A stretch of DNA of 16,478 nt from a virus (lineage: Duplodnaviria > Heunggongvirae > Uroviricota > Caudoviricetes), in IMG/VR virus record IMGVR_UViG_2526164601_000013; one strand, given 5' to 3'. Under the pieces are notes generated by a model that saw only the letters and a list, made by a program, of their open reading frames with translations, had not been told where the DNA came from and ran no database searches. Position 1 is the stretch's first letter; every line of letters begins with the position of its first letter. Shown here in pieces: positions 1,312 through 16,478 of the stretch. Both the position numbers and the translations under genes were made by a program.

Positions 1312-1480
1312 CGTCTTCTTCCTCGTACATTGAGCTATTCGGATCGCTCATCAGTTCTGCGCAGCAGTGCTCACACACGTGAACTTCCAGCACATGCAGC
1401 TTCTGACCGCAGTTAGCGCACGTTAAAGCCCGCTCGACGCTTTCTTTCTGGTATTGAAGGGATTGGGATGGGCTAAGCAT
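1304..1480 (-). CDS. ninF: NinF-like protein (58 aa, Cys-rich)
   Basis: Track ORF 1304..1537, trimmed to the internal Met so the protein starts [40 protein letters not shown], matching my recollection of lambda NinF. Confidence 0.6.
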   Translation of the reverse strand: MLSPSQSLQYQKESVERALTCANCGQKLHVLEVHVCEHCCAELMSDPNSSMYEEEDDE

Positions 1481-1880: not shown

Positions 1881-2053
1881 TTCCTCGCACGTTCTCTAAG
1901 CCACCGGATATCCCACAGGTGAGCCGTGTAGTTGAAGGTTTTTACGTCAGATTCTTTTGGGATTGGCTTGCGTTTATTTCTGGAGCGTTTCGTTGGAAGG
2001 TATTTGCAGTTTTCGCAGATGATGTCGGTGATACTTCGTCGCTGTCGTCTCAT
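1877..2053 (-). CDS. ninE: NinE-like protein
   Basis: Track ORF 1877..2098, trimmed to internal Met 16 ([51 protein letters not shown]), matching my recollection of lambda NinE. The chosen start gives an ATGA overlap with the ninB stop. Confidence 0.65.
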
Positions 2054-2460
2054 TCGTACCTCCTGTCGGTAAATCTGACACCCTGACCAATAGCCCATGC
2101 TGTCGTGTACTCAATCAGACTTGCCATACGCTTCACACTCATCTGCGCGCTACTTTCGCGAATGTTGACGTATTCGCCTTCAAGCCCGGGCAAAACATCA
2201 GCTTCCTGTTTTGTTGCCACTGCATGACCGCTGATCAACAAAACCTTCCATTGTTCCGGTTTTAACCATTTTCCGCACCATTGAACCTGACGTGCGATAT
2301 CCGCCAACATCGCGTGAAATTTTGCGTTCTGGTCAAGGTTGCGCTTGTAGTCAGTAATGCGGATGGTAACTGGCTTGTCTTTATCGAGTGGTGTTGCGAG
2401 GATGGCGTTGATTGCGGCTTGCTGTTGTTGCTTAGTTCGGAGGAAGATTGTTTGCTTCAT
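2050..2460 (-). CDS. ninB: NinB-like recombination protein
   Basis: Track ORF, 136 aa. [26 protein letters not shown] region resembles lambda NinB (Orf family). First gene of the nin cluster. Confidence 0.8.
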
Positions 2461-2788
2461 CGAAATTCTTCTCTTTAATTCCAGCGGCTCTGATAGCTTT
2501 CATTACTGCAATTACCGTTTTGTCACGCCCATCCTCATAACCCATCGCATAAGCACCTTCTTCACCATCTCTCCAAAAGTCGTCATTCGATTCTGGCCAG
2601 TCGATATCCAGTTCAATAGCTGCTCGCGATGCCTGCCATAAAGTCCACCACTCATTTAAGGAGTGACGAATATCCATGCTTGAAAATGCGAAGTACCTAT
2701 CACCATTTCTTGCCTCGGTTATCATCTCGAATGGTAATCTCAATTTTTTGGCAACGTATTCCTCAAACTGCTTTCTTGATTCGCCCAT
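2432..2788 (-). CDS. Hypothetical protein (about 118 aa, acidic, Trp-rich)
   Basis: Track ORF 2432..2800. Start moved to the second Met (MGESRKQ), which has a GGAGAG Shine-Dalgarno 5 nt upstream. Confidence 0.5.
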   Translation of the reverse strand: MGESRKQFEEYVAKKLRLPFEMITEARNGDRYFAFSSMDIRHSLNEWWTLWQASRAAIELDIDWPESNDDFWRDGEEGAYAMGYEDGRDKTVIAVMKAIRAAGIKEKNFDEANNLPPN

Positions 2789-2815
2789 ATCACTCTCCAT
2801 CGATGATTTTTTTGG

Positions 2816-2998
2816 TTACCAATAATATTTGATAGTCGCCATAATTATCGGTAGCAACGCGCAGACAACTGAAAACCGTAAAACAAAACCTACTCCCAAT
2901 ATGCGATATCCATTATTCCAGAGAACAAAACTCATCATCAGAAGGAATCCATGAAAAATCGCGACAAGAAATAAACTACAAATAAATGCATTTACCAT
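2816..2998 (-). CDS. Small hydrophobic protein, 60 aa, two predicted TM helices
   Basis: Track ORF. Translation is almost entirely hydrophobic (FICSLFLVAIFHGFLLMMSFVLW ... VVCALLPIIMATI). AT-rich. Weak RBS. Confidence 0.4.
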   Translation of the reverse strand: MVNAFICSLFLVAIFHGFLLMMSFVLWNNGYRILGVGFVLRFSVVCALLPIIMATIKYYW

Positions 2999-3057
2999 CG
3001 GTACTTACCCCTCGCTCTTAATCCAATAAAAAAGGGTTTGCTTCACTGAACACTCCT

Positions 3058-3249
3058 TTATTTTTTATGCCTGTAACCCCATTCTTCCAGCAACCTTGCG
3101 GCGTACCACCCAAGAAACAAAGGAAAGAACATTACAATGAGATATTCCCCGCCACGGTCAATGTTCGAAATTGACCAGATTACGATGTAACCAGTGCAGG
3201 ACAGGAATATTACAAACCCCAAAAAGCTACTTCGTCGACTCATACTCAC
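3058..3249 (-). CDS. Small membrane protein, 63 aa, two predicted TM helices
   Basis: Track ORF. Strong GAAGGAG Shine-Dalgarno upstream of the ATG. Hydrophobic segments FLGFVIFLSCTGYIVIWSI and YLIVMFFPLFLGWYAARLL. Confidence 0.5.
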   Translation of the reverse strand: MSMSRRSSFLGFVIFLSCTGYIVIWSISNIDRGGEYLIVMFFPLFLGWYAARLLEEWGYRHKK

Positions 3250-3253
3250 TCCT

Positions 3254-3469
3254 TCACTTTGATTCCAGACTCCGGATTATTCTGTTGCGCTGAAACTCAT
3301 TGTTGAGTTTGAACAACCGTCGAAGAACACGGTCACGCGGATAGCGTCGTGCAGCAGGTGAATGCTCATACAACTCATCAATCGGCAAACTGGACGATGA
3401 ACGATACCGATACCAACGCACCAACTCTTCACGAAAATTAGCCCTGACAAGCTCAGCTATCGTACTCAT
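3254..3469 (-). CDS. Hypothetical basic protein, 71 aa
   Basis: Track ORF with a GGAGG Shine-Dalgarno 7 nt upstream. First gene after the tR2-like terminator. Confidence 0.5.
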   Translation of the reverse strand: MSTIAELVRANFREELVRWYRYRSSSSLPIDELYEHSPAARRYPRDRVLRRLFKLNNEFQRNRIIRSLESK

Positions 3470-3499
3470 TTCTTAAAGCCTCCAATTCCCTCTCCCCCA

Positions 3500-3530
3500 A
3501 ATAAAAAGGCCTGCGATTACCAGCAGGCCT
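3500..3530 (-). terminator. Rho-independent terminator on the minus strand (tR2-like), between ren-like and the small-gene cluster
   Basis: Minus-strand transcript forms an 8-bp GC-rich stem (AGGCCUGC / GCAGGCCU) with an 8-nt loop, followed by UUUUAUUU. Confidence 0.55.
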
Positions 3531-3555
3531 GTTATTAGCTCAGTGATGTAGATGG

Positions 3556-3846
3556 TCATTGCCTTACTTCCATAAGCGCCCTATTAATAAACGCCGTCAT
3601 TGGATTTGCACATCCCCACCCCGTACCATCTGGATTTCTTTTAATTGGCTCCTTCTTCACTTTGCGTTTTGCATAAATAACCGTCTTCCACTTGCGCTCA
3701 ACAACACTCAAATGCCCTTGTTTCACCATATGCCTTGCTGCTTGAGCGATTCTGTTATTTGGTATTCCGGTGATCAGAGCTAATTCATGTGGGGAGAATT
3801 GTTCATGAGTTTTCAGATATTCCAGGATGATTTCTTTTCCAGTCAC
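3556..3846 (-). CDS. ren: Ren-like winged-helix DNA-binding protein
   Basis: Track ORF, 96 aa. Same size and position (just after the replication genes) as lambda ren, with an MTGKE start and an HTH-like segment. Family assignment is from memory. Confidence 0.5.
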   Translation of the reverse strand: MTGKEIILEYLKTHEQFSPHELALITGIPNNRIAQAARHMVKQGHLSVVERKWKTVIYAKRKVKKEPIKRNPDGTGWGCANPMTAFINRALMEVRQ

Positions 3847-4706
3847 AATCTGCTCCTGTAACTATCCCATGTAAACGCAAGGGTGCATCCGCCGCCATCA
3901 TTCATCCTGTCAATAACACGCTCACCAATGAATGCAGACAGTTCATCTTTGCTCTGGTTGCTAATCAGGATTGTTGGCTTCATACGCTCGTAGCGGGTGT
4001 TGATGATTTCGAACATGATCATCTTTTCCGCCTCGCTTCCAAACTGCACACCAACCTCATCGATAATTAGCAGGTCAGGTTTAGTGAACTGTCGGATCAC
4101 TTCATCCTCAGTGCGGGTGGAGTTTTTCGACCATGTTGATTTATATTCTCTGGCAATTTTCAGCGCCGTTGTGAAAATAGCTGAGCTTTGATGTTCCGTA
4201 ATTGCGTGCCGGGCGATAGCCAGTGCAAGATGATTCTTTCCAGTACCAGGCTTTCCACACATAACCAGCCCACCGCCTTTCTGTAACCTCTCAGGCCATT
4301 TGCTGGCGTATGCCTGACACACCCTGAGCACTCTCTTTGCATCGTCGTTGACTGGCTCGTAGTTCTGTAGTGTGCAACCCTTGAATCGTTCAGGAATATC
4401 AAGATTATTCAACAGAAACTCGACATTGCGCTTACGTGATTCCTCGTCGATTTTAATCTTCTCTGCCTGTAGCCGAATAAGATCATCTCTCATGCATTCC
4501 GGGCATTCGCTAGGTCTTGAAGCAAACTTAATTGGCCCAGTCGAGTAACGGTTACGCTGCTCAAACTCACCATGTTTTTCACAGATGCCAGTGCCAATTT
4601 CTACAGCTGTATGCTCGATAGCAATTGGCGGAGAACTCAATTCTGCAAGTTTTTTCTCCAGTTGGGAGATCTTTTCATCCAGCGTCATGTTCACTCCTGC
4701 GCCCAT
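3843..4706 (-). CDS. Replication protein, DnaC-type helicase loader (AAA+/IstB-like ATPase) with an N-terminal Cys-rich domain
   Basis: Track ORF, 287 aa. Walker A GKPGTGKNHLALAIA, Walker B LLIIDEVG, sensor region and ISNQS motif as in DnaC/IstB. Overlaps the O-like gene stop. Occupies the lambda P position. Confidence 0.85.
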   Translation of the reverse strand: MGAGVNMTLDEKISQLEKKLAELSSPPIAIEHTAVEIGTGICEKHGEFEQRNRYSTGPIKFASRPSECPECMRDDLIRLQAEKIKIDEESRKRNVEFLLNNLDIPERFKGCTLQNYEPVNDDAKRVLRVCQAYASKWPERLQKGGGLVMCGKPGTGKNHLALAIARHAITEHQSSAIFTTALKIAREYKSTWSKNSTRTEDEVIRQFTKPDLLIIDEVGVQFGSEAEKMIMFEIINTRYERMKPTILISNQSKDELSAFIGERVIDRMNDGGGCTLAFTWDSYRSRL

Positions 4707-5557
4707 GAAGGCATTTCAGTTTGTCCGTAATCTTTGGTGGCAAAGTTTTCCTGCATAGCTCGATGCTGCGGACTCGGTTGAGATTTCCCCTTTGGAGTCT
4801 TGGGCTCAAAAATCCCCTGCCAACCACTGGCGATGCTCTGGTTTATAATTTCTTCAGGTGTATATCCCTTCTCCAGACTTCTGCTTAGAACGTTGATAGC
4901 CTGAGTGACACTTTGCTTAGACTTGATCGACTTACCTATCTCCTTGCGATAGGTAACCCACGACAACCATGTTTCTGCCGATAACCAATCAGGCAACTCT
5001 GTTTCTAGCGGGTCGAACTTCTGAGAAACTTTTTTGGGGGATATAGGGGGTTTATTAATATTTTCTTTTGTCTTTAAAGAATGTCTTTTGTGTGTCTCTA
5101 ACTTCGAGACATTGAGTGTCTCTAACTTCGAGACATTGAGTGTCTCTAATTTGGAGACATTTTTTGTCTCTAACTTCGAGACAAAGTTGCTAACTTGGAG
5201 ACACTTGCTGAATTGCCACGCAGATACCTCCCTGTTTACACCGATTTGATTTCCATCCATAAACAGGCAATTCATTGAAATCAGTTCTTTTTTAGCCTTG
5301 TTAACATTCTGCCTTGACAGTCCTGTTAACTGAGCAATTTGCTCATCGGCTATTCGATCTGTTTTCTTATTGAAGCCATATGTTTTCCGGACGTAGGCCA
5401 GCATAACTTTCAACTGGCGAGCGGTTAAATCGGCACTTGCGATAGCTTCCAGCAGCTCGTTAGCGAATCTGGTGTAACCATCATCGATATCAGCCACTCT
5501 TCGCTCCTGTTCAACAGGTTCACTCTTCGGCAGGTAAAATACTTCAGCCAGGCTCAT
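4691..5557 (-). CDS. O: Replication initiator, lambda O-like, with iteron-encoded peptide repeats
   Basis: Track ORF 4691..5617, trimmed to Met MSLAEV, which has a GGAGG Shine-Dalgarno 7 nt upstream. N-terminal domain ERRVADIDDGYTRFANELLEA...KTYGFNKKTDRIADEQIAQLTGLS resembles lambda O. The SKLET(L/K)NV x4 repeats are encoded by the iterons. Confidence 0.85.
   Translation of the reverse strand: MSLAEVFYLPKSEPVEQERRVADIDDGYTRFANELLEAIASADLTARQLKVMLAYVRKTYGFNKKTDRIADEQIAQLTGLSRQNVNKAKKELISMNCLFMDGNQIGVNREVSAWQFSKCLQVSNFVSKLETKNVSKLETLNVSKLETLNVSKLETHKRHSLKTKENINKPPISPKKVSQKFDPLETELPDWLSAETWLSWVTYRKEIGKSIKSKQSVTQAINVLSRSLEKGYTPEEIINQSIASGWQGIFEPKTPKGKSQPSPQHRAMQENFATKDYGQTEMPSWAQE
5040..5202. 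repeat. Putative origin of replication: four 17-bp iterons with 24-bp periodicity plus a partial fifth, and an adjacent AT-rich region
   Basis: GTCTCTAACTTCGAGAC at 5094-5110, 5118-5134 and 5166-5182; variant GTCTCTAATTTGGAGAC at 5142-5158; partial copy to 5202. Each unit is itself an inverted repeat (GTCTC...GAGAC). AT-rich tract at about 5040-5093. All lie inside the O-like gene, as for ori-lambda. Confidence 0.7.
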
Positions 5558-6188
5558 TTCCAACCTCCGCATCAAAGCATTGGGCTTCAAGAGACTTAAC
5601 CATCGCCACACTGCCATCTGTATTAATAACTATCGATGAGTTATATTTGCTTATCAGTTGCTTCGCGTAATCAATTCCGGCGCGAATAAGGAAATTTTTC
5701 ACCGCAGGAAGATGACCAACTACACTACCCATACCTTGCTCTATAAGCTCATCATTAAGATCAAGCTCATTTTCATGGCGAAAAGAAATGAATGAGTCGT
5801 AAATTGCGTATTCTGCCGTCTCGCCATTTCTTTCAGGGCCAACCAGCGCCCTTATTTCATTTAGAGATTCAGAAAGCTCATTATCTTCAAGCTTGAAAAA
5901 CTCTCGATTATCACTAAGCCTCTCTTTTGCAAAGGCTTTATGAATGAGTTTTTCATCTGATGCGGGATTATTTGAATGAAAGGCTGCTATCACCTTAAAT
6001 GGCTTAGGAACGCCAGTAGAGGCTGAAATTTCTTTAGCCCTAACTTCTGGTGAATGCTTAGTCATCCCAATCTTATAAATTCCTGGCATGCACTCATTCG
6101 AAAGCACATAAACAAAGCCATTTGATTTAAAATCATCTGGCACCTTCATGCTCTTCAGAACCTGGAATTTGTCATTTTCGTATGTCAT
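5544..6188 (-). CDS. T5orf172 / GIY-YIG-like domain protein, putative nuclease (214 aa), inserted between cII and O
   Basis: Track ORF. AGGAG Shine-Dalgarno 5 nt upstream of the ATG. N-terminal segment FVYVLSNECMPGIYKIGMTKHSPEVRAKEI ... NREFF fits the GIY-YIG-like T5orf172 pattern as I recall it. The C-terminal ~110 aa are unassigned. Confidence 0.65.
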   Translation of the reverse strand: MTYENDKFQVLKSMKVPDDFKSNGFVYVLSNECMPGIYKIGMTKHSPEVRAKEISASTGVPKPFKVIAAFHSNNPASDEKLIHKAFAKERLSDNREFFKLEDNELSESLNEIRALVGPERNGETAEYAIYDSFISFRHENELDLNDELIEQGMGSVVGHLPAVKNFLIRAGIDYAKQLISKYNSSIVINTDGSVAMVKSLEAQCFDAEVGNEPG

Positions 6189-6222
6189 AATTACTCCTGT
6201 GGATTGATCCAGTCTTTCTACA

Positions 6223-6501
6223 TCAGGCCTCGAAGAATTCGCCGTTCTTCGGGGCTTTTTCTTTTGTCAGCATTCTGGCTACTTTCTTAGCCAGTTCCGC
6301 CAACTCCTCGTCTTCAACACCCCATTCAAGAACAGCCAGAAGCATTCCCATTTTTGGGATGAAGCTGTCTTTCCATCGCGAAATTTGCGATTCATTAATC
6401 CCTAACGCGTCGGCAACCTTTCGCTGACCACGTACAGCAATTCGATTCAGGATGTTGCTTGTAATTGCATTCGCTTTCTTGCGAGTACTTGTAAGTTCCA
6501 T
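6223..6501 (-). CDS. cII: Transcriptional activator cII-like
   Basis: Track ORF 6223..6588, trimmed to Met MELTSTRKK, which has an AAGGA Shine-Dalgarno. QISRWK...IPKMGMLLAVLEWGV closely resembles lambda cII (SQISRWKRDWIPKFSMLLAVLEWGV). Lies downstream of cro and nutR. Confidence 0.8.
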   Translation of the reverse strand: MELTSTRKKANAITSNILNRIAVRGQRKVADALGINESQISRWKDSFIPKMGMLLAVLEWGVEDEELAELAKKVARMLTKEKAPKNGEFFEA

Positions 6502-6559
6502 ATGTAAGTATTTCCTTAACAAATAAGAAGTTATGCGCATCAACTTATGCGCGTTGTAT

Positions 6560-6602
6560 TCCCGCATTTCGGCGGGAATGAGGACCATGACTGTTAAAGA
6601 GC
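6560..6602 (-). promoter_or_regulatory. nutR site: boxA and boxB hairpin
   Basis: Read on the minus strand: boxA GCTCTTTAACA (plus 6592-6602) and boxB hairpin TCCCGC-CGAAAT-GCGGGA (plus 6560-6577). Both elements are identical to the nutL copies. Confidence 0.65.
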
Positions 6603-6610
6603 GGTGTTAC

Positions 6611-6835
6611 TTATGCTGCCTGATTCGGTTTTGGAAACAGGTGTGGCAAATCGGGGCGAATTTCGTAAGCCTTGATCTGCCCTCCAGTGGCGTTAACGAT
6701 GGCGGTAACTTTCTCTGGAGAGACCAACCCGCCTTTCAGCCATTTGTGTACTGCTGGCTGCGTTACACCACACTTGTCGGCAAGGCGCTTTTGGCTACCG
6801 ACAATTTTCAAGGCTCGTTGAATTACTAAATTCAT
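6611..6835 (-). CDS. cro: Cro-like repressor (HTH)
   Basis: Track ORF 6611..6856, trimmed to Met MNLVIQ, which has an AAGAGG Shine-Dalgarno 6 nt upstream. HTH segment GSQKRLADKCGVTQPAVHKW. Divergent from cI across the operator region. Confidence 0.7.
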   Translation of the reverse strand: MNLVIQRALKIVGSQKRLADKCGVTQPAVHKWLKGGLVSPEKVTAIVNATGGQIKAYEIRPDLPHLFPKPNQAA

Positions 6836-6859
6836 GAGCATACCTCTTGTGGTCATTAC

Positions 6860-6946
6860 TTATAACCAAAGATAACTCAAGTTATAAAAAATAGCAATAA
6901 CCTTTGTTATTTTACTTTGGATAACCGTAGTTATAGATTTGTGGGT
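6860..6946. promoter_or_regulatory. OR operator region with divergent pR/pRM: three 14-bp palindromic operators ATAAC-N4-GTTAT
   Basis: ATAACTCAAGTTAT at 6872-6885, ATAACCTTTGTTAT at 6897-6910, ATAACCGTAGTTAT at 6921-6934, spaced 24-25 bp centre to centre, between cro and cI. Confidence 0.6.
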
Positions 6947-7654
6947 ATGAAAACATTCGCAGAAAGACTAAATGCAGCCATGAGCTCAGCAGGGGTATCA
7001 CAATCACAGCTTGCTGACATGGTTGGAATATCTCAGCCAGCCATACAGAAGATGTCGTCCGGTAAAACAAACGGATCTCGCAAGATGGTTGAATTAGCCA
7101 ATGCTTTAAAAGTGCGTCCTGAATGGCTTAGTTCTGGTATTGGTGAAATGAGGGATGGTGCACATGAAGAACCATCCAATGTCCGTGATTCATCTTTAAA
7201 AGCTGTGGTATGGGAAGACATTAAAAGAAACGATGACGAGTTTGTTGCGTTGCCTCTTCTTAACGTTTCGCTTTCAGCTGGAAGCGGTAGCTGCGAGCTA
7301 GAGGAATCATCGGAGTTCTCTTTGGTTTTCAGAAAGCACTATCTGAAAAAGATGGGAGTATCTGAAAGATCAGCCAAGCTAGTTAGGGTTGTAGGGCAAA
7401 GCATGGAACCAACGCTTCACGATGGCGATGTTGTTGGTGTTAACACGCAAGATACCACAATCAGAGATGGTAAAACCTACGCTATTTGCCAGTCTGATTT
7501 GTTACGAGTAAAAACATTAATCGCCACCCCTACATCGGTGATAATCAGATCAATAAATCGCGAAGAGTACCCGGATGAAGTAATGGATAGAGATGAATTT
7601 CATGAAACCGTAAGGATTATTGGCAGAGTATTCTGGTCGTCTCATAGTTGGTAA
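6947..7654 (+). CDS. cI: Prophage repressor cI-like (N-terminal HTH, C-terminal LexA/S24 autopeptidase domain)
   Basis: Track ORF 6917..7654, trimmed to Met MKTFAERL because the upstream part overlaps operator 3. HTH segment GVSQSQLADMVGISQPAIQKM. S24 motifs GQSMEPTLHDGDVVGV (Ser) and LRVKTL (Lys). Confidence 0.85.
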   Translation: MKTFAERLNAAMSSAGVSQSQLADMVGISQPAIQKMSSGKTNGSRKMVELANALKVRPEWLSSGIGEMRDGAHEEPSNVRDSSLKAVVWEDIKRNDDEFVALPLLNVSLSAGSGSCELEESSEFSLVFRKHYLKKMGVSERSAKLVRVVGQSMEPTLHDGDVVGVNTQDTTIRDGKTYAICQSDLLRVKTLIATPTSVIIRSINREEYPDEVMDRDEFHETVRIIGRVFWSSHSW

Positions 7655-7694
7655 CCGATAATCAGAAGAAGACTTACGGAAGTGCGGAGGGATA

Positions 7695-7991
7695 ATGGAA
7701 TTTCTGATAGTTTTTGTTGTTGTTTTGGTCATCATTCTTTTTGTTTTGCTAAGCATTAGTAAAAAGCTATCTCAAATGATTGAACATAGCTCTAATCGTG
7801 CAAAAGAAGAAGAGCATATAATTGATATAAAAGAGATTCTCTCTGATATAAAAATCACATTAGATGAAATAAAATACACAACAGATCTAATTGAACAGTA
7901 TAAAATACCAACCCCAAACGAGAGAAAAGCAATAGATCAATATCGTATTGACTTAGAAATCGACGAAATGCTAAGCAAAAGAAAAGACTAA
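7695..7991 (+). CDS. Small membrane-anchored coiled-coil protein (98 aa) downstream of cI; candidate exclusion/abortive-infection moron
   Basis: Track ORF. GGAGGG Shine-Dalgarno upstream. N-terminal TM helix FLIVFVVVLVIILFVLLSI, then a charged helical region. Strongly AT-rich codon usage. Followed by an intrinsic terminator. Confidence 0.6.
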   Translation: MEFLIVFVVVLVIILFVLLSISKKLSQMIEHSSNRAKEEEHIIDIKEILSDIKITLDEIKYTTDLIEQYKIPTPNERKAIDQYRIDLEIDEMLSKRKD

Positions 7992-7996
7992 AAACA

Positions 7997-8023
7997 CCCG
8001 GCCTCAGCGCCGGGTTTTCTTTT
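7997..8023 (+). terminator. Rho-independent terminator ending the cI - orf98 transcription unit
   Basis: Stem CCCGGC / GCCGGG (7997-8002 / 8009-8014), loop CTCAGC, then TTTTCTTTTCC. Confidence 0.7.
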
Positions 8024-8145
8024 CCTGCCGTTCACCACCCAATCAACCATCCTCATCATAGACAAGCATCAAGCCAAAGGTAACACCTTCACCCCGCACG
8101 CAAGCCCTCAAACACCAATCAATCAGCAACATTTACAAAAATAAA

Positions 8146-8230
8146 ATACCTTTGTTATCCATCACTTATAACCTATTTACCATAAAATATAAATTAGGTT
8201 ATTGACCACACCTATAACCTAAGTTATCTT
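8146..8230 (+). promoter_or_regulatory. OL operators and candidate pL promoter
   Basis: ATAACCTAAGTTAT at 8214-8227 and ATAAATTAGGTTAT at 8189-8202, same family as the OR sites. Degenerate third site at about 8146-8181. Candidate -35 TTGACC at 8202-8207 and -10 TATCTT at 8225-8230 with a 17-bp spacer. Confidence 0.5.
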
Positions 8231-8276
8231 TAAGCCATCAGCAGGACGCTGGAAGCCAAACGGAACAGATTGGCAG

Positions 8277-8317
8277 GCTCTTTAACATTGATGGGATTGT
8301 CCCGCCGAAATGCGGGA
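8277..8317 (+). promoter_or_regulatory. nutL site: boxA and boxB hairpin
   Basis: boxA GCTCTTTAACA at 8277-8287 (close to the rrn boxA consensus as I recall it). boxB TCCCGC-CGAAAT-GCGGGA at 8300-8317. Both identical to the nutR copies. Confidence 0.65.
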
Positions 8318-8424
8318 ACCAAAGAGTAGTTGGCTTTGGGGTGACGTGAAGTGCAGCTGCACGACGGCAACCGGAAGATAAGCACCCGGCGCGTCACCGC
8401 CAAAGTCAATCATCGGAGGTCAAC

Positions 8425-8696
8425 ATGACAGTAGTCATTACATATCTGGCTGACGATAACGCCAGAAATCGCGCAGAGCACGCAGACAGGCTCAACGTGA
8501 ACAGGCAATGCAAGAACAGCGATTGGCACGAAAAATTGCGCTAAAGCTCTCTGGTTGCGTCAGAGCAGATAAAGCAGCATCACTCGGAAGCCTTCGCTGC
8601 AAGAAGGCAGATGAATGCAGTGGAAGTATTTGCCTGCCAAACGTAGCCATTTACGCGGCAGGCTACCGGAAATCAAAACAACTGACGGCGAGGTAA
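8425..8696 (+). pseudogene. N: N-like antiterminator, 5' portion, apparently frameshifted
   Basis: GGAGGT Shine-Dalgarno then ATG at 8425 opens a frame reading MTVVITYLADDNA... that stops after 39 codons. The arginine-rich motif (RQKSRRARRQAQREQA) and the N-like body lie in the next frame with no in-frame start before the track ORF's ATG at 8508. Confidence 0.5.
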
Positions 8697-8698
8697 TT

Positions 8699-9061
8699 AT
8701 GGGTCAGGAAGAAAAATATGAGCTTAAAAAGCTCATTGGAGAAGACGCCATAGAAGAAATTGCAGCATTAACAACAGCTATAAAGAATATTAGGTATGCG
8801 CTAAATACGCTTATCTCCTCATGCGACAAAAATAGCAGGGAATTTTTGATACTTGGCGCAGCTCTAGGAATAGTTGATGCGGCAACGCTTCACCTAATTA
8901 CTCATGACGATATTCTTATTGAGCCGTATGAAACATTACTGCTTGTCAGGCAAAAAATGGCTGATGCCGCAGCAAATGGAGACCTTCAACTTTACATCGA
9001 CTTAAGGAAAGTATTAAGGCGAATGGTCAAAACTGAAGGAGATATCCCCCTGACAAAGTAA
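8699..9061 (+). CDS. Hypothetical protein, 120 aa; gene A of an AT-rich two-gene cassette
   Basis: Track ORF 8615..9061, trimmed to Met MGQEEKYELKK, which has a GAGGT Shine-Dalgarno. Start lies immediately after the stop of the N 5' fragment. AT-rich. No family recognised. Confidence 0.55.
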   Translation: MGQEEKYELKKLIGEDAIEEIAALTTAIKNIRYALNTLISSCDKNSREFLILGAALGIVDAATLHLITHDDILIEPYETLLLVRQKMADAAANGDLQLYIDLRKVLRRMVKTEGDIPLTK

Positions 9062-9091
9062 GGGGGTGAAGAGGCCATTTCAGGAATAAAA

Positions 9092-9586
9092 TTAATAATT
9101 TGTCAGCGGCGGTACATATACAGGCTTAGGGTCTGGCGCTCTATACATCCGGTATTCATTCTTACAGCGAGGACATGAATGCACAAAGAACCCATTAGAT
9201 TTTATAGTAACCGTGCTTGGTTGAAGTATCGATATTTTATGTTCGCCGAAGCAATGTGCACAAAGGTTATGCTGCTGAATAGAAGGATCGGAATGACTCT
9301 TAGGTCGATACACGACAGAACCACCTTCAGTTGTATGAAGTTCATAATTCTCAGCTTGCACAACAAACATCTTGATTTTTCTATTTTCATCTCGAAGCTT
9401 CATTGCGATCTCCTTCTCGGCCTGATAAAGGCCAGAGAGCTCCGCATTAAGCATCTGTAAGTCAGTTATTCTTTGGTGTAGATCACCAATAGCTTTAGCG
9501 ATAACAGCATCGTCTCTGGTTTCTTTTATTGTCTTCAGCAGATCATAAGCCTGTTTCGCGGCAGTTATACCAGATAACACATCCAT
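9092..9586 (-). CDS. Hypothetical protein, 164 aa: N-terminal coiled coil plus C-terminal CxxC...CxxC zinc-ribbon-like domain; gene B of the cassette
   Basis: Track ORF, antisense to the pL operon and convergent with gene A. Cys motifs CAHC and CPRC about 20 residues apart. AT-rich. No family recognised. Confidence 0.55.
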   Translation of the reverse strand: MDVLSGITAAKQAYDLLKTIKETRDDAVIAKAIGDLHQRITDLQMLNAELSGLYQAEKEIAMKLRDENRKIKMFVVQAENYELHTTEGGSVVYRPKSHSDPSIQQHNLCAHCFGEHKISILQPSTVTIKSNGFFVHSCPRCKNEYRMYRAPDPKPVYVPPLTNY

Positions 9587-9667
9587 ATAAATTACTCTCT
9601 TACTGTAGGGGTAAGAGGATTTTACTATTTTTCTCGCTGTAGGGGTACACGAGAACCACCGAGCCTG

Positions 9668-9778
9668 ATGTGGTTAAAAGACAGGCACAATCTTTACTAC
9701 CGCAAGCCACGCAGTGAAATGGGTGTGACTTGTGTTGGTCGCCAGAAAATGAAATTAGACAGCAAACCACTTATTTGA
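9668..9778 (+). pseudogene. N: N-like antiterminator, C-terminal remnant
   Basis: Translation ...NLYYRKPRSEMGVTCVGRQKMKLDSKPLI* closely matches my recollection of the lambda N C-terminus (RTWYSKPGERGITCSGRQKIKGKSIPLI*). The frame is open only from a stop near 9575, so it cannot encode a full N. Confidence 0.5.
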
Positions 9779-9786
9779 GGTGAGAT

Positions 9787-10257
9787 ATGACAAAATCATG
9801 GAGCGTACCTTTTCCTGAATCAGAAACTGAACATGATGGAATGCCTGTTTTCTGGAGATTCCAGGCGACAGTTGAAGAAGATGGAATCAAAATATTCGCA
9901 CTTCAATATATAGCTTTTCATCAGACAGAGCATTATGCATGGTTGGTTCCTGCGCATTGGATTGTTAATTTTAAACCAGCACCAAATCAGTGGTTACAGG
10001 AATGGAAACAAAAGAGAAATAGATATGCAATTAAGAAAGTAGCAAAAAATGCAGAAAGATCTTTTGCATTCCCAACGAAGAAACTTGCTATTGAAAGTTT
10101 ATTGCGCCGGAAGAAATACCATTTAATGAGAATAAAACAAGATTTGGCTGTTGTATCAACTCTTGTTGATGGGATGAAAAATATTGATACATCAACACCA
10201 GATATTGAATATAACTTTGGACACAACCAAGAAACAGAAAATTGGGTATTTTATTAG
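9787..10257 (+). CDS. Hypothetical protein, 156 aa
   Basis: Track ORF. GAGGTGAG Shine-Dalgarno. Starts 9 nt after the N-remnant stop. AT-rich. Confidence 0.55.
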   Translation: MTKSWSVPFPESETEHDGMPVFWRFQATVEEDGIKIFALQYIAFHQTEHYAWLVPAHWIVNFKPAPNQWLQEWKQKRNRYAIKKVAKNAERSFAFPTKKLAIESLLRRKKYHLMRIKQDLAVVSTLVDGMKNIDTSTPDIEYNFGHNQETENWVFY

Positions 10258-10361
10258 TACGAATAAGCACTGTGTATTCATTCCAACGAGTGAATACACG
10301 GAGCAATGTCGCTCGTAACTAAACAGGAGCCGACTTGTTCTGATTATTGGAAATCTTCTTT

Positions 10362-10388
10362 GCCCTCCAATGTGAGGGCGATTTTTTT
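10362..10388 (+). terminator. Rho-independent terminator (tL1-like) in the pL operon
   Basis: Stem GCCCTC / GAGGGC (10362-10367 / 10374-10379), loop CAATGT, then GATTTTTTT. Ends 12 nt before the ATG at 10401. Confidence 0.55.
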
Positions 10389-10400
10389 GACGGAGGAAAT

Positions 10401-10712
10401 ATGAAATTACGTGTCTGGCATATCCCGCAAGTACCTATGAAACCGTTCATTGCAGAAGTGGCAAGTGTTGAAGAGGGTGTTCGCCTGATGGGCGCACTGG
10501 CTGATTATGACGCCTTTCAGTATGACAACAACATCAAGCCTGATTACTGCAATGCTAACGGCCTTGAGATGTGGGATGAGAGCCTTACCGATGAAGATTT
10601 ATCAGAGGTGGGGCTTACTGATCGCTGGGTGGATTGGTACAGCGAATGCCAATGTTACGACGACCCACGTAAATATCTCGAAAGCCTGAAAGAAGAAACA
10701 TCAGCCGCCTAA
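10401..10712 (+). CDS. Hypothetical acidic protein, about 103 aa
   Basis: Track ORF 10347..10712 begins at a TTG inside the terminator. Start moved to ATG 10401 (MKLRVWHIPQV), which has a GGAGG Shine-Dalgarno. Confidence 0.5.
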   Translation: MKLRVWHIPQVPMKPFIAEVASVEEGVRLMGALADYDAFQYDNNIKPDYCNANGLEMWDESLTDEDLSEVGLTDRWVDWYSECQCYDDPRKYLESLKEETSAA

Positions 10713-10787
10713 GCGCGGCTTTACCGCATACCAATAACGCTTCACTCGAGGCGTTTTCGTTATGCAATCAAATATAAGGAGTTACCC

Positions 10788-10922
10788 ATGATGCACTTTC
10801 AGCTCGCGGGTAGCGGCGTCATGTCCGCTTTCTACCCGCACGAATCTGAATTATCACGCCGAGTTAAACAATTAATTAGAGCAGCAAAGAAACAACTGGA
10901 GGCGTTATGCGCAATGAAATAG
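10788..10922 (+). CDS. cIII: cIII-like small protein, 44 aa (below the 60-aa ORF-track cutoff)
   Basis: AAGGAG Shine-Dalgarno 6 nt upstream of ATGATG. Translation MMHFQLAGSGVMSAFYPHESELSRRVKQLIRAAKKQLEALCAMK resembles lambda cIII (YAIAG...ESLLERITRKLRDGWKRL) in its central amphipathic helix. Confidence 0.55.
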   Translation: MMHFQLAGSGVMSAFYPHESELSRRVKQLIRAAKKQLEALCAMK

Positions 10923-11059
10923 CCATTAATCACCAGATGCTTCGTGCGGCACAAAACAAAGCAGTAATAGCCAGATTTATTGGTGATTCAAAAATGTGGC
11001 TTGAAGCAAATAAAGCGATGAAATCAGCTATCAACCTTCCGTGGTATCGCAGGAAATGA
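10907..11059 (+). CDS. kil: Kil-like small protein, 50 aa (below the track cutoff)
   Basis: GGAGG Shine-Dalgarno then ATG. Overlaps the cIII-like 3' end. Contains AVIARFIGDSKMW, similar to the FIGDEKM segment I recall in lambda Kil. Low-certainty family call. Confidence 0.4.
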   Translation: MRNEIAINHQMLRAAQNKAVIARFIGDSKMWLEANKAMKSAINLPWYRRK

Positions 11060-11134
11060 GTTTCACAGATAACTGGTCAGACGAAGAATTCATTCGTCAG
11101 ATGAAAGAATTAATCGGTAACGAAGGAGATATTC

Positions 11135-11305
11135 ATGTCACTTGCAACCACAGTGAAGGAGAGCAAGTTACAGAGACGCATGTACACGCAGCAGGCGTTA
11201 ATGTATCGCCAGAAGGGAGATCGTGAAGGTGTTCGCGTATTTTTAAATGCGGCAAAGACTGAAGTATTAAATCAGCGTTATTTCCTTGGGCCATGCCCAT
11301 TCTGA
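11135..11305 (+). CDS. Small protein, 56 aa, directly upstream of erf (P22 arf-like position)
   Basis: Strong AAGGAG Shine-Dalgarno 6 nt upstream of the ATG. Translation is helical-looking throughout. Competes with the track ORF 11041..11226 in another frame. Confidence 0.35.
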   Translation: MSLATTVKESKLQRRMYTQQALMYRQKGDREGVRVFLNAAKTEVLNQRYFLGPCPF

Positions 11306-11315
11306 GAACAAACAT

Positions 11316-11921
11316 ATGAGCAAAGACTTTTACGCAAGACTGGCAGCTATTCAGGAGAACTTGAACGCGCCAAAGAATCAGTACGACTCATTCGGTAAAT
11401 ATAAATACAGAAGCTGCGAAGACATTCTTGAAGGCGTTAAGCCGTTACTGAATGGCCTGTTTTTATCAATCAGCGATGAAGTTGTGTTGATTGGTGATCG
11501 GTATTATGTGAAAGCCACGGCAACTATTACCGATGGCGAAAACAGTCATACGGCAACCGCTCTTGCACGAGAGGAAGAAAGCAAGAAAGGAATGGATTCT
11601 GCACAAGTTACGGGAGCTACAAGCTCTTATGCACGCAAGTATTGCCTCAATGGTTTGTTCGGCATTGATGATGCGAAAGATGCAGATACCGACGAGCATA
11701 AACATCAGCAGAACGCAGCAGCAAAGCAGTCAAAACCATCACCTACACCTGAACAGGTTCTAAAAGCATTCACTGACGCAGCATTGCAGAAAAACACCGT
11801 GGAAGAGCTTAAACAGGCGTTCGCCAAAGCGTGGAAGATGCTCGAAGGCACACCGGAGCAGCACAAAGCGCAGGACGTTTACAACATCAGACGAGACGAA
11901 TTAGAAGGAGCTGCTGCTTAA
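11316..11921 (+). CDS. erf: Erf-family single-strand annealing recombinase
   Basis: Track ORF 11286..11921, trimmed to Met MSKDFYARLAAIQENLNAPKN, which matches my recollection of the P22 Erf N-terminus. Followed by ssb. Confidence 0.65.
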   Translation: MSKDFYARLAAIQENLNAPKNQYDSFGKYKYRSCEDILEGVKPLLNGLFLSISDEVVLIGDRYYVKATATITDGENSHTATALAREEESKKGMDSAQVTGATSSYARKYCLNGLFGIDDAKDADTDEHKHQQNAAAKQSKPSPTPEQVLKAFTDAALQKNTVEELKQAFAKAWKMLEGTPEQHKAQDVYNIRRDELEGAAA

Positions 11922-12304
11922 TGGCACATTCGATTACTGTAAGACTAAACAAGCCCGCAAGAGAGTTTCAGGCCGGGGAAAATATCGGATTCAACATCCG
12001 TGCTGGCGTTCAGTATTACGATCGCCAGACAAAAAAGAAAGAATGGACAAACTACAGCGCCGTTGTATTTGCCAAGCCGGGAGCGCAAGCGGATTACTAC
12101 CGTAGTGTTCTTGTTGAAGGTGGCATTGTGGAAATTACCGGAGAAAACATCAGGGTTGATGTTTATCAGGGGCAAAATGGTCAATCAATCACTCTTGAAT
12201 TACTGAATGCAAAGATTGGATTTGCAGCTTCAGGAAATGGCCCGCAGCAGCAAAGTAGTAACCAGCAGAACACTCCTGTATACGACGATTCCATCCCATT
12301 CTGA
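11921..12304 (+). CDS. ssb: Phage single-stranded DNA-binding protein (short SSB)
   Basis: Track ORF 11831..12304, trimmed to Met MAHSITVRL (TAATG overlap with the erf stop). Gln/Gly-rich tail ending DDSIPF, like the acidic C-terminal tip of bacterial SSB. Confidence 0.65.
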   Translation: MAHSITVRLNKPAREFQAGENIGFNIRAGVQYYDRQTKKKEWTNYSAVVFAKPGAQADYYRSVLVEGGIVEITGENIRVDVYQGQNGQSITLELLNAKIGFAASGNGPQQQSSNQQNTPVYDDSIPF

Positions 12305-12327
12305 TTTAGAAAAATAAGGATTTAATT

Positions 12328-12621
12328 ATGCCAGCGCCTCTGTATGGTGCGGATGACCCACGCCGCTGTTCCGGCAATTCCGTATCGGAGGTGCTGGATA
12401 AATTCAGAAAAAACTACGATCGGATAATGTCGCTACCGCAGGAAACGAAAGAGGAAAAGGAATTTCGCCATTGTATATGGCTTGCAGAGAAAGAAGAACG
12501 CGAGCGAATTTACCAGACATCAATCCGACCATTCCGCAAAGCCACATATACCCACTTCCCTGAAATTGACCCGCGCCTGCGTAATTACCGCTCACGCTAT
12601 GGCGCTATCAGTAATGACTGA
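12328..12621 (+). CDS. Hypothetical protein, 97 aa
   Basis: Track ORF. AAGGA Shine-Dalgarno. Confidence 0.5.
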
Positions 12622-12792
12622 GGAATTTACCATGAGAGGACTTGCATACAATCCCGGCATTCTTCCGGCAGAAATGATTATTCGCCAACGCGTAAAGCCA
12701 ATGCCATCGAGAGAGTAATTGCTTAAGAGAAAGAGTTTCGGTTCTGTTAATGACAACAAATATCTGAATGCTATGTGGCGGAGTGGGAAAAA

Positions 12793-13380
12793 ATGAAACA
12801 AATGTCACTAATTGAGATGGATGGTTTTCTGAAAGGTAAATGCATCCCACGAGATCTAAAGGTTAACGAAACAAACGCTGAATATCTTGTCCGTAAGTTC
12901 GGTGAACTTGAATCAAAACTGGAAACGGCGTTGCGGGAGTGTCGTTCTGCTGGAATCACGATTGATAACCTTGAGGCCAAGTGCGCGGCGCTGGCAGCGG
13001 AGAGTGCGGGGATGAAGAAGTTCTGCAAAGACGCTGCATTCGATGCCGATTACGAAGCAGAGCTAGGTATGGAGCGTGGTTTATTCAGTGATGCGCTTAA
13101 CGAAATCAAAACCCCAGCCACCGATGCTTTCCTGGCTGAAGTACGTGCGGAAGCACGCAACGAGGGTATTAACTATGCCGCAAGCCGTCTTGCTGCTGCT
13201 TTCAACCACGGATTTATCAATAAGTCTTTACGTGAAGTTTTCGATGTTACGCGCATGATTCTGTCAGCGAAAGAAGAGTTGGCTAATGAACCGCATCCGA
13301 TTGATGGCCTGTCTGGTGAATATGCGGAGAAATCCCTTGAAGAATGGGCGGAACAGATTCGCAAAGGAGGCAACCAGTGA
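12793..13380 (+). CDS. Hypothetical protein, about 195 aa
   Basis: Track ORF 12775..13380 starts at GTG. The ATG at 12793 (MKQMSLIEMDG) is preferred but the start is ambiguous. Confidence 0.5.
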   Translation: MKQMSLIEMDGFLKGKCIPRDLKVNETNAEYLVRKFGELESKLETALRECRSAGITIDNLEAKCAALAAESAGMKKFCKDAAFDADYEAELGMERGLFSDALNEIKTPATDAFLAEVRAEARNEGINYAASRLAAAFNHGFINKSLREVFDVTRMILSAKEELANEPHPIDGLSGEYAEKSLEEWAEQIRKGGNQ

Positions 13381-14045
13381 GCAAGATTGACTATCAGGCA
13401 CTGCGTGCCAAGGCAGAAAAAGCAACGTGTGGTGTATGGTCGCTCGAATATGGAGAGAGCCGATTTGATTGTGATGATGCGTTAATTCATCGTGAAGTTG
13501 TTGGATATCTTCCCATTTGCAGAATTGAAGGAGCACATCCAGAAAGCGGTTTCGATGAAGATTTCCAAATGGAACAGCAGGCCAATGCTGAATTCATCGC
13601 CGCAGCCAATCCGGCTACTGTGCTGGCATTACTGGATGAACTGGAAAGAAACCAGCAATACATCAAACGCCGCGATCAGGAGAACGAGGATATTGCGCTA
13701 ACGGTAGGGAAACTGCGTGTTGAGCTGGAAGGCAAAGACAAGCTGATTGCAGAGCTTGGAAAACAATGCGCCGAATGGGAGCGAAAAGCATTAAGCAACT
13801 TTGAAGAGTGTGCTGCGATGGCTGAACGTATCGAAGAGATGAGTAAGCAAAGTTGCGAAGCCCGGGAGCGTGATTTGTTTGAATCATGGGTAATGCATTC
13901 AATTTGTATCTCCAAATCGACGCTTGAAGGATTGCGTACCGAAACTGGATACCGTAACGCAACCTTATCAGGCACAGACTTCAACCGAATGTGGAAACAA
14001 TGGAAATCTATCCGCGCTACTGGCATTCGCATCAAAGGAGAGTGA
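13377..14045 (+). CDS. Ea22-like prophage protein
   Basis: Track ORF 13344..14045, trimmed to GTG 13377, which has an AAGGAGG Shine-Dalgarno. The ANAEFIAAANPATVLALLDELE region resembles the Ead/Ea22-like family common in enterobacterial prophages (from memory). Confidence 0.5.
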   Translation: MSKIDYQALRAKAEKATCGVWSLEYGESRFDCDDALIHREVVGYLPICRIEGAHPESGFDEDFQMEQQANAEFIAAANPATVLALLDELERNQQYIKRRDQENEDIALTVGKLRVELEGKDKLIAELGKQCAEWERKALSNFEECAAMAERIEEMSKQSCEARERDLFESWVMHSICISKSTLEGLRTETGYRNATLSGTDFNRMWKQWKSIRATGIRIKGE

Positions 14046-14046
14046 G

Positions 14047-14235
14047 ATGTCGCTGACGGTTAGGCAGTTAATCAGCAAGCTCAGAAAAATGCCTCCTGAG
14101 GCTGTCGTGGTCTGGCAGGGCTATGACCAATCAGAGGGTGAGTATAACGACTTTGTAGGTCATGTTGCTGATGTTACAGATGAGAATGCACCATCTTTTG
14201 ACCCAGAAGTGCGCGTTGTGGCGCTAAGAGGATAA
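14047..14235 (+). CDS. Hypothetical small protein, 62 aa
   Basis: Track ORF 13924..14235, trimmed to Met MSLTVRQL, which has an AAGGAG Shine-Dalgarno and starts right after the previous stop. Confidence 0.45.
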   Translation: MSLTVRQLISKLRKMPPEAVVVWQGYDQSEGEYNDFVGHVADVTDENAPSFDPEVRVVALRG

Positions 14236-14238
14236 CCC

Positions 14239-14856
14239 ATGACCACTATTACCAAAGAGCGACTACTGACAATCAAGCAGTGGCGCGAAACATACGGACC
14301 TGGTAGCAACGTTGTACTGCCAGCAGAAGAAGCGGAAGAACTGGCACGAATTGCTCTGGCATCGCTGGAAGCAGAGCCTATTGGTGAGGTTTCAGAGAAG
14401 CGACTCGGCCTTGTTATGGATGGAACGGTAGACCTTGGCGGGAAATCAACTTATCGCATCATTAAGGGAGAAAAAGCGATGAAGTTGTTGCCGCTGGGGA
14501 CGAAGTTTTATACCGCACCGCCAGCGCCGATAGCGTTGGAGGCCATTGAAAATGCAATAGAATACATCCGCAGTATCGCTTTTCACATCGATGAAGACGA
14601 TTACCACGGCAAACATATTGCGTATTTCATGCGACAAGCATTGGCCTGGCTGGAAGGGCATTCATGCAGTGATGACAGTCAGGGCAAATCCGATAATTCA
14701 CCATTGCCGCGCTACCAGGTGATCGAATTAACAATGCTGGTTAAACAATTGGTCAGCCAACTGAAAAAAGCAAAACCTGATTGCAAATTACCTGATAGGG
14801 CGATGGATTATCTTTTGCGAAACGGACTGGTAAGTGCGGAGGATGTTTTACGATGA
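14239..14856 (+). CDS. Hypothetical protein, 205 aa
   Basis: Track ORF, closely packed in the operon. Confidence 0.5.
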   Translation: MTTITKERLLTIKQWRETYGPGSNVVLPAEEAEELARIALASLEAEPIGEVSEKRLGLVMDGTVDLGGKSTYRIIKGEKAMKLLPLGTKFYTAPPAPIALEAIENAIEYIRSIAFHIDEDDYHGKHIAYFMRQALAWLEGHSCSDDSQGKSDNSPLPRYQVIELTMLVKQLVSQLKKAKPDCKLPDRAMDYLLRNGLVSAEDVLR

Positions 14857-15440
14857 CCATTTCTACAAAAAAGCCTCTTTATGCTGAGGTTCACAATGTT
14901 CCTGATGATTATGAGTTCACTGACGAGGAACTAAACAGAATTATTGCAGGTGATATGTTCACTCCTCGTCAGGACGCAATAATGGCACGGGAGATACAGA
15001 AACTCCGCGCCGCCATGCTTCATGGTGCCGAACCTGTAAGCCAAACTTACAAGTCACAACATACGCAGTTTGAACAAGTTGCTGACCTCTACGAAATGCA
15101 ATTTGATGACGGTCGCACTTGTGCCTTTCACACTGATGCGCAAAAGGCTGCGCAATGGCTTCAGGCATGCGACGGAAACAGGGTTCAGGAATACGTGAAG
15201 CTGGAGCGATTGCGTAATGCGCTATCGGGCAACTCTCCGGTAACTCCGGATGGTTGGATATGCTGTAGTGAGCGAATGCCGGATAAGTTAATTCCGGTAA
15301 TGGTCATGTATGAAGACGGTGAGATGTGGTCTGCAATGTGGAATGGCAATCGCTGGGATGATGGCACCGAATATCCGGATCCGCACTCAGTTACGCACTG
15401 GCGTGAAATGCCAGCAGCACCGCAGCAGGAGGTGAAGTGA
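14853..15440 (+). CDS. Hypothetical protein with a DUF551-like C-terminal domain
   Basis: Track ORF, 195 aa. C-terminal GWICCSERMPD...WNGNRWDD...VTHWREMPAAP resembles the DUF551 pattern typical of prophage early-region proteins (from memory). Confidence 0.5.
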   Translation: MTISTKKPLYAEVHNVPDDYEFTDEELNRIIAGDMFTPRQDAIMAREIQKLRAAMLHGAEPVSQTYKSQHTQFEQVADLYEMQFDDGRTCAFHTDAQKAAQWLQACDGNRVQEYVKLERLRNALSGNSPVTPDGWICCSERMPDKLIPVMVMYEDGEMWSAMWNGNRWDDGTEYPDPHSVTHWREMPAAPQQEVK

Positions 15441-15718
15441 TGGACTCCTTCGCGAAATATACGATTATTGACTGGATAGCATTCCTTCAGGTTTTGCTCA
15501 TCTGGTTTTATATGGCTTACAGGAGTGGGCAGTGGATTGTCAGTGTAGCCTGTAGCAAGGGATGGCGTTGGTGGAACCGAAAGAATAAAAAAGCGCTGGC
15601 CTTGGATTCGTTTTACGAAGCATTCAATCTTAACAGTCTTCAGCCTGGTTATGTCATTGTAGTCACCACTCAAAGCGGCATGACCATTCAGATTCATAAA
15701 CCAAAAGAGGAAAAATGA
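15437..15718 (+). CDS. Small membrane protein, 93 aa
   Basis: Track ORF with a hydrophobic N-terminal segment IIDWIAFLQVLLIWFYMAY. Its stop is 2 nt from the IS2 end. Confidence 0.45.
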   Translation: MMDSFAKYTIIDWIAFLQVLLIWFYMAYRSGQWIVSVACSKGWRWWNRKNKKALALDSFYEAFNLNSLQPGYVIVVTTQSGMTIQIHKPKEEK

Positions 15719-15811
15719 TGTAGACTGGCCCCCTGAATCTCCAGACAACCAGTATCACTTATTTAAGTGATAGTCTTAATACTAGTTTTTAGACTAGTCA
15801 TTGGAGAGCAG

Positions 15812-16141
15812 ATGATTGATGTCTTAGGACCGGAGAAACGCAGACGGCGTACCACACAGGAAAAGATCGCAATTGTTCAGCAGAGCTTTGAACCAGGGAT
15901 GACGGTCTCCCTCGTTGCCCGGCAACATGGTGTAGCAGCCAGCCAGTTATTTCTCTGGCGTAAGCAATACCAGGAAGGAAGTCTTACTGCTGTCGCCGCC
16001 GGAGAACAGGTTGTTCCTGCCTCTGAACTTGCTGCCGCCATGAAGCAGATTAAAGAACTCCAGCGCCTGCTCGGCAAGAAAACGATGGAAAATGAACTCC
16101 TCAAAGAAGCCGTTGAATATGGACGGGCAAAAAGTGGATAG
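15812..16141 (+). CDS. insC: IS2 transposase OrfA (InsC)
   Basis: Track ORF 15767..16141, trimmed to Met [56 protein letters not shown] (HTH), the IS2 OrfA start as I recall it. Confidence 0.85.
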
Positions 16142-16478
16142 CGCACGCGCCCTTATTGCCCGGGGATGGGGAGTAAGCTTAGTCAGCCGTTGTCTCCGGG
16201 TGTCGCGTGCGCAGTTGCACGTCATTCTCAGACGAACCGATGACTGGATGGATGGCCGCCGCAGTCGTCACACTGATGATACGGATGTGCTTCTCCGTAT
16301 ACACCATGTTATCGGAGAGCTGCCCACGTATGGTTATCGTCGGGTATGGGCGCTGCTTCGCAGACAGGCAGAACTTGATGGTATGCCTGCGATCAATGCC
16401 AAACGTGTTTACCGGATCATGCGCCAGAATGCGCTGTTGCTTGAGCGAAAACCTGCTGTACCGCCATCGAAACGGGCA
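16134..16478 (+). CDS. insD: IS2 transposase OrfB (InsD), 5' part; made as a frameshift fusion with OrfA
   Basis: Shifted frame reads [34 protein letters not shown]...[22 protein letters not shown] to the end of the window. The slippery-looking CAAAAAG lies at the OrfA/OrfB overlap. Confidence 0.75.

Follow-up and report, generated by a model that had tools for sequence, protein, structure and literature searches.

We analysed a 16,478-nucleotide stretch of viral DNA (IMG/VR record IMGVR_UViG_2526164601_000013; hereafter the window), whose plus strand is the "leftward" strand of a lambdoid early region. On that strand lie, in order, a cI-like repressor gene (6947-7654), a 98-aa open reading frame (ORF), a terminator (7996-8015), a PL-like promoter, nutL and, from 8425, the antiterminator gene N. 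The minus strand carries cro, nutR, cII, a GIY-YIG gene, replication genes, a terminator-like hairpin, nin genes and the start of Q. N is the first gene past PL and nutL and adjoins the immunity region; the locus represents a lambdoid prophage's PL-nutL-N module, with an N of the HK620 type. The transcription signals of the two early operons are as follows.

8202..8230, plus strand: PL-like promoter (TTGACC-17-TATCTT), from a consensus scan
8277..8316, plus strand: nutL, with boxA at 8277-8287, a 13-nt spacer and boxB, a predicted hairpin, at 8301-8316
8329..8410, plus strand: long hairpin in the leader, downstream of nutL and upstream of the N ribosome-binding site (8318-8430 folded: -44 kcal/mol, z = -3.5)
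6561..6602, minus strand: nutR in the cro/cII interval, with boxA at 6592-6602 and boxB, a predicted hairpin, at 6561-6576
3499..3530, minus strand: tR2-like intrinsic terminator at the boundary between the replication genes and nin-Q (consensus match)
10360..10389, plus strand: first strong intrinsic-terminator-like hairpin past N in the leftward operon (consensus match)
10736-10755, plus strand: second terminator-like hairpin of the leftward operon (consensus match)

A first-pass annotation of this DNA had described nutL and nutR as intact and identical. Both are indeed present, giving each early operon a cognate site with a boxA and a boxB hairpin, and their cores are the same: boxA (GCTCTTTAACA) lies at 8277-8287 on the plus strand and at 6592-6602 on the minus strand, and boxB (CCCGCCGAAATGCGGG) at 8301-8316 and 6561-6576, respectively, a match with a shuffle expectation of 0.01 for boxB. 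The identity does not extend to the spacers, which are 13 nt in nutL and 15 nt in nutR, and the full 43-nt nutL has no second copy in the window at up to three mismatches. The window's nutL corresponds to the nutL annotated in HK620, and the position of the PL-like promoter to the pL/OL operator annotation of the same phage. Farther along the leftward operon, the hairpin at 10360-10389 precedes a GP17-family gene (annotated as superinfection exclusion) and the cIII-like, kil and erf genes.

The leader hairpin at 8329-8410 is very stable and recalls the RNase III-sensitive leader of lambda N; in one related locus, L014, about 200 additional bases separate it from the N start. We considered the single-nucleotide differences at 8362 and 8386 as private changes that strengthen the hairpin, and rejected the idea: they belong to a common haplotype found at 83 loci, including HK620. 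On the minus strand, the gene of the GIY-YIG / T5orf172 nuclease family (5544-6188) is flanked by cII and the replication initiator and is part of a replication module unlike the O/DnaB-type module of the O26 prophage. The initiator gene itself contains about four to five copies of a 24-nt iteron-like repeat (5064-5206), and the window has one unit (5092-5115) more than the otherwise 99% identical locus L133.

N and its missing base

Three overlapping features describe N in the sequence as given.

8425..8696, plus strand: apparent N pseudogene of the HK620 type (alignment and translations; the intact form is 273 nt, 90 aa)
8425..8544, plus strand: truncated product of 16 N residues and 23 out-of-frame residues, then a stop (ORF and alignment)
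8508..8696, plus strand: 62-aa internal ORF with the N centre and C-terminal part, lacking the arginine-rich motif

A GGAGGT at 8415-8420 precedes the N start codon, ATG 8425. As had been noted at first pass, this start opens a frame of 39 codons beginning MTVVITY (8425-8544), which exits the arginine-rich motif (ARM) after R16 and meets a stop at 8542-8544. It had also been noted that the ARM lies in the adjacent frame with no in-frame start, and we find the same: the motif-bearing frame is open from 8460 to its stop at 8694-8696, and direct reading reveals no ATG, GTG or TTG in it from 8460 to the ATG at 8508. Because this frame is in addition closed upstream by stops at 8451 and 8457, no alternative start rescues it, and from the real start codon the ARM is not in frame with the rest of the protein.

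Alignment with HK620, the O26 prophage and Stx1a_10051 shows one gap only, at about 8472, where CGCCGC has become CGCGC (relatives, AATCGCCGCAGAG; window, AATCGCGCAGAG). The missing C falls within the codons of the RNA-binding ARM. Of the two lesions suggested earlier, a 1-nt deletion or a 2-nt insertion near 8446-8460, the alignment thus supports the deletion and moves its site downstream; a deletion before 8460 would leave the stops at 8451 and 8457 in the target frame. Apart from this single indel, intact homologues are nearly identical to the window. The interval 8230-9790 has full-length matches of 99.8% in 55 complete genomes of E. coli, mostly O26:H11, and a match of 99.8% in the Stx1a-converting phage Stx1a_10051; in phages HK620 and HK630 the match is 99.4% and covers 93% of the interval. 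Wherever a match is full-length, the matched sequence exceeds the query by one base.

The intact gene, annotated as N in HK620, encodes MTVVITYLADDNARNRRRARRQAQREQAMQEQRLARKIALKLSGCVRADKAASLGSLRCKKADECSGSICLPNVAIYAAGYRKSKQLTAR. This 90-aa protein consists of an ARM (...NARNRRRARRQAQREQ...), a centre in common with phage 21 N, and a C-terminus, CSGSICLPNVAIYAAGYRKSKQLTAR. With the base restored, the window's protein matches Pfam PF25694 (N_peptide) at 58.4 bits (cutoff 27.9), and N here matches phrog_271 with E = 4e-34; a sequence search of the repaired protein against solved structures gave chance matches to RNF168 only. In the sequence as given, then, the earlier proposal that N is knocked out while the nut sites are present is borne out, by a 1-nt deletion in the RNA-binding motif.

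We found this allele nowhere else in the collections scanned. Of the 509 E. coli complete-genome records that contain the 5' 96 nt of this N, none matches at 100%; the best of them reaches 99.0%, the difference being the single gap. The deletion-bearing 37-mer is absent from the species-representative genome, IMG/VR and metagenome contigs scanned, whereas at least 120 viral contigs contain the intact 38-mer, and neither the exact 39-aa nor the exact 62-aa truncated product is on record among the called genes of the assembly collection. An exact look-up of a 308-aa replication ORF was equally without result. The nearest relative, IMGVR_UViG_2526164688_000036, is collinear with window positions 208-15721 (15.5 kb) and has an intact N. 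Four differences separate it from the window, namely two substitutions, one additional T at 2807 and the C at 8472. The indel at 2807 was considered as a sign of an error-prone assembly and set aside, the window agreeing there with O26 and four other genomes and the relative being the odd one. The deletion is also the only indel relative to O26:H11 11368 across 6413-15721 (about 9.3 kb). With the allele absent from these collections and the nearest relative intact, the missing base reflects either a null mutation of very recent origin or an error in base calling.

If it arose in sequencing or assembly, the true sequence is CGCCGC, a complete N of 90 aa is encoded and the prophage is under normal regulation, leaving the downstream N relic described below as the one true feature. 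Among assembly errors, single-base indels are the commonest. None of the more than 600 homologous sequences shares the allele, the nearest relative with its intact N differs at just three other positions in 15.5 kb, and the context is G+C-rich, all of which would fit an error. On the other hand, the site is a CC dinucleotide with no long homopolymer, and the same prophage has an IS2 insertion that is absent from its two closest comparators. Moreover, the deletion is the only private indel in the 15.5 kb, so the assembly is not generally error-prone. Because the assembly is otherwise clean and the context is not homopolymeric, we modestly favour a real mutation, which is somewhat more likely than not; an artefact is possible but less likely.

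N proteins bind RNA through the ARM, NusA through a central region and polymerase through the C-terminal region (PMC3526286). The 62-aa ORF at 8508-8696 would keep the centre and C-terminus, the counterparts of the parts of lambda and H-19B N that bind NusA and RNA polymerase. Its frame is open and scores 52.8 bits on the C-terminal 44 positions of Pfam N_peptide. Through internal initiation, or re-initiation past the premature stop, it might supply enough N activity or modulate it, in which case the gene would be shortened rather than dead. However, the entire ARM is missing from this product, and in H-19B N even point mutants of the ARM are severely defective in antitermination (PMC3526286). 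The start is used by no relative. We translated N in 117 related viral contigs, a sample selected for the intact 38-mer at the deletion site, and 112 of the alleles are 87-101 aa long and begin at the upstream ATG. The AGG before the internal ATG lies just 2 nt upstream of it, and the exact product is, as noted above, not on record. That a functional N of this family might consist of the 8508..8696 ORF alone, a possibility raised at first pass, does not agree with the intact homologues, which are 90 (or 99/101) aa and start at the ATG at 8425. We consider a working 62-aa protein very unlikely. Programmed recoding, in which a -1 ribosomal shift or transcriptional slippage would yield full-length N at a regulated low level, has the overlap of the frames as its sole point in favour (a -1 shift past 8472 would restore the protein), but AAT CGC GCA offers neither a slippery heptamer nor an A/T run, and no relative in the alignment, the 117 contigs or the E. 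coli records has this arrangement in place of the intact form, making it the least credible of these explanations.

An exchanged C-terminus and a displaced 3' end

Downstream of the deletion, the N coding sequence passes into a cassette with further genes, followed by a second N-like sequence.

8616..9692: 1,077-bp cassette replacing N nt 193-214 of a 99-aa allele (junctions against the empty-site loci L014 and L133)
8699..9061, plus strand: hkaQ homologue, 120 aa, function unknown (HK620 annotation; phrog_7374)
9092..9586, minus strand: hkaP homologue, 164 aa, a putative superinfection exclusion protein in the HK620 record
9598..9687: conserved right end of the cassette, common to HK620 and VT1-Sakai up to 9687
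9693..9778, plus strand: relic, the last 28 codons and stop of a phage-21-type 99-aa N (YYRKPRSEMGVTCVGRQKMKLDSKPLI, then stop; DNA comparison)

In the 117 viral contigs, one N-terminal and central module is joined to alternative C-termini. Alleles of 90 aa, ending ...ADECSGSICLPNVAIYAAGYRKSKQLTAR, account for 52 of the 117 and alleles of 99 aa, ending ...AEEVERKQNRIYYRKPRSEMGVTCVGRQKMKLGSKPLI, for 45, and a 101-aa variant makes up another 13. Phage 21 combines the 99-aa end with an ARM of its own and VT1-Sakai combines the 90-aa end with the phage-21 ARM; all four combinations of ARM and C-terminus therefore exist.

The history of the window's allele can be read from loci that lack the cassette. 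Window positions 8410-8615 correspond to N nt -14 to 192 of 99-aa empty-site loci, and from 9693 the window resumes at N nt 215, continues to the stop and enters the same 156-aa ORF, with 99.1-99.6% identity. One such locus, L133, shares the window's sequence from 2923 to 8606 (N nt 182), including cI and the replication module, and is 99.6% identical over 9693-10386; there, the sequence that forms the relic is translated, as the end of a 99-aa N. From this mapping of the junctions, we conclude that 1,077 bp replaced 22 nt of an ancestral 99-aa N. The incoming DNA supplied another N C-terminus together with the homologues of hkaQ and, on the opposite strand, hkaP, and the conserved right end.

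The relic at 9693-9778 matches the 3' end of intact alleles, with a DNA identity of 100% for N of L133 and 95.9% for phage 21 N; it also matches phrog_271 with E = 7e-11. Empty-site relatives with the same flanks exist. In the window it is displaced, joined to no N reading frame and untranslated, and it is without function in the present gene. At other 90-aa loci, different cargo separates N from the relic.

The N-like C-terminus about 1 kb downstream, which the first-pass annotation had taken for a 3' remnant, is thus real, but it was not broken off by the lesion. The same junction and relic stand beside an intact N in the 55 E. coli genomes and in the Stx1a phage record, so that the split was no part of any inactivation of N. 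The alternative offered at the time, a mosaic junction between two N alleles, proves right for the downstream remnant, given the empty-site junctions and the relatives with intact N. Because the viable phages HK620 and HK630 carry the 90-aa form, the cassette replacement is old and compatible with function. Mosaicism by module exchange has long been established for lambdoid phages.

Neither PADLOC nor Pfam gave a credible hit for the products of hkaQ, hkaP, the 156-aa ORF and the 98-aa ORF. In the HkaP homologue, the N-terminal half looks like a coiled coil and the C-terminal part shows a CxxC...CxxC pattern (CAHC...CPRC); the protein's sole match is phrog_1244, of unknown function. Just upstream of the opposite-strand hkaP, a 16-nt direct repeat, TCTyrCTGTAGGGGTA, occurs at 9598-9613 and 9632-9647. 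The surrounding element of about 85-90 bp is conserved and stands before hkaP in HK620 and before sieB in VT1-Sakai, ending at the same mosaic boundary. This right-end element may be the promoter/operator of the exclusion gene.

What loss of N would mean

Overall, we estimate at roughly 0.6 the probability that N was broken by one missing base. Of N, the sole translatable product from its start retains 16 residues; the later part of the ARM, the centre and the entire C-terminus are lost. By analogy with lambda, phage 21 and H-19B, RNA polymerase would, without an ARM-bearing N, remain unmodified at nutL and nutR. Leftward transcripts would then end at or before the terminator-like hairpin at 10360-10381, upstream of the cIII-like, kil and erf genes, and rightward transcripts would end at tR1 or at the terminator-like hairpin at 3507-3530, short of nin and Q. 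Rho-dependent polarity caused by the premature stop may contribute. Such a prophage would be expected to keep its immunity, while its lytic programme could not run. If the lesion is real, the lysogen is predicted to be unable to produce phage or to express its late genes on induction.

One further feature bears on the state of the prophage.

15722..16478: end of an IS2 element (IS3 family) inserted in the leftward operon (comparison with relatives)

IS2 follows ...AAATGATG, at a point where the nearest relative and the O26:H11 prophage run on with TGGCCTATATG...; the element sits right at the start codon (ATG) of a short ORF in the leftward operon. Of the 117 viral contigs, a sample that was selected for an intact deletion site, 5 carry N alleles truncated in other ways. 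These alleles are independent, with products of 39, 6, 55, 83 and 86 aa in L071, L076 and three other IMG/VR loci; that of L071 results from a different frameshift and, at 39 aa, shares its stop codon with the window's product. The IS2 insertion and the other truncated alleles make it reasonable to see the window as part of a decaying prophage, and domestication, as the first-pass annotation had it, is plausible. They do not show that N loss is a "common" step, and a search of the literature on N loss in defective prophages found nothing directly usable. It is highly improbable that the deletion, if real, has been retained as useful, locking a prophage that could not kill its host and whose immunity and exclusion genes are still on, with a re-initiated ARM-less 62-aa protein that would, on derepression, act through its NusA and polymerase modules as a decoy against the N of superinfecting lambdoid phages.

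The mosaic architecture described here is classic lambdoid module exchange and the lesion is a one-off null allele; there is nothing new in kind. Beyond annotation, the locus has little importance. Loss of N would be relevant only if the prophage carried cargo such as stx, and none is shown in the window. The relic, with its empty-site relatives, is a clean, datable example of module exchange within N, at the boundary between centre and C-terminus.

Relation to known N systems

The window's N is a member of the known group formed by the N proteins of HK620, phage 21 and VT1-Sakai. It is closest to HK620-type N. The repaired protein is 100% identical to WP_012817806.1, an HK620-type N of E. coli prophages, and 98% identical over 90 aa to N of HK620 itself (AAK28866.1); HK630 also carries an N of this type. 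HK620 has the same nutL sequence, ribosome-binding site, start codon and hkaQ and hkaP neighbours as the window, but in the window's N one C is missing at about 8472, which puts the gene out of frame. No phage-21-type 3' relic exists in HK620, whose similarity to the window stops at 9687.

Phage 21 N, present in phage DE3 (ACF32368.1, 99 aa), has its centre, ARKIALKLSGCVRADKAASLGSLRCKKAEE, in common with the window. Its C-terminus is the source type of the relic, although in phage 21 it is contiguous with the gene and translated. Its ARM, GTAKSRYKARRAELIAERR, differs from the window's, and a different boxB specificity is therefore expected. N of the Stx1 phage VT1-Sakai (BAB19610.1, 90 aa) has the window's centre and the CSGSICLPNVAIYAAGYRKSKQLTAR C-terminus, and is followed by the opposite-strand superinfection-exclusion gene sieB and then by the same right-end element; in contrast to the window, its ARM is of the phage-21 type and its cargo is sieB rather than hkaQ and hkaP.

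Phage mEp213 (L126) has two N genes in one leftward operon, at 555-887 and 2040-2312: a lambda-type N with a phage-21-like tail and, about 1.2 kb further downstream, a complete HK620-type 90-aa N. Lambda N, represented by this lambda-type copy (AFM76391.1), occupies the same genomic position as the window's gene, in the order PL, nutL, N and terminators, and has a C-terminal tail similar to the relic (YSKPRSEMGVTCVGRQKMKLGSK...). Its identity to the repaired protein is only 28%, however, and both its ARM and its centre are different.
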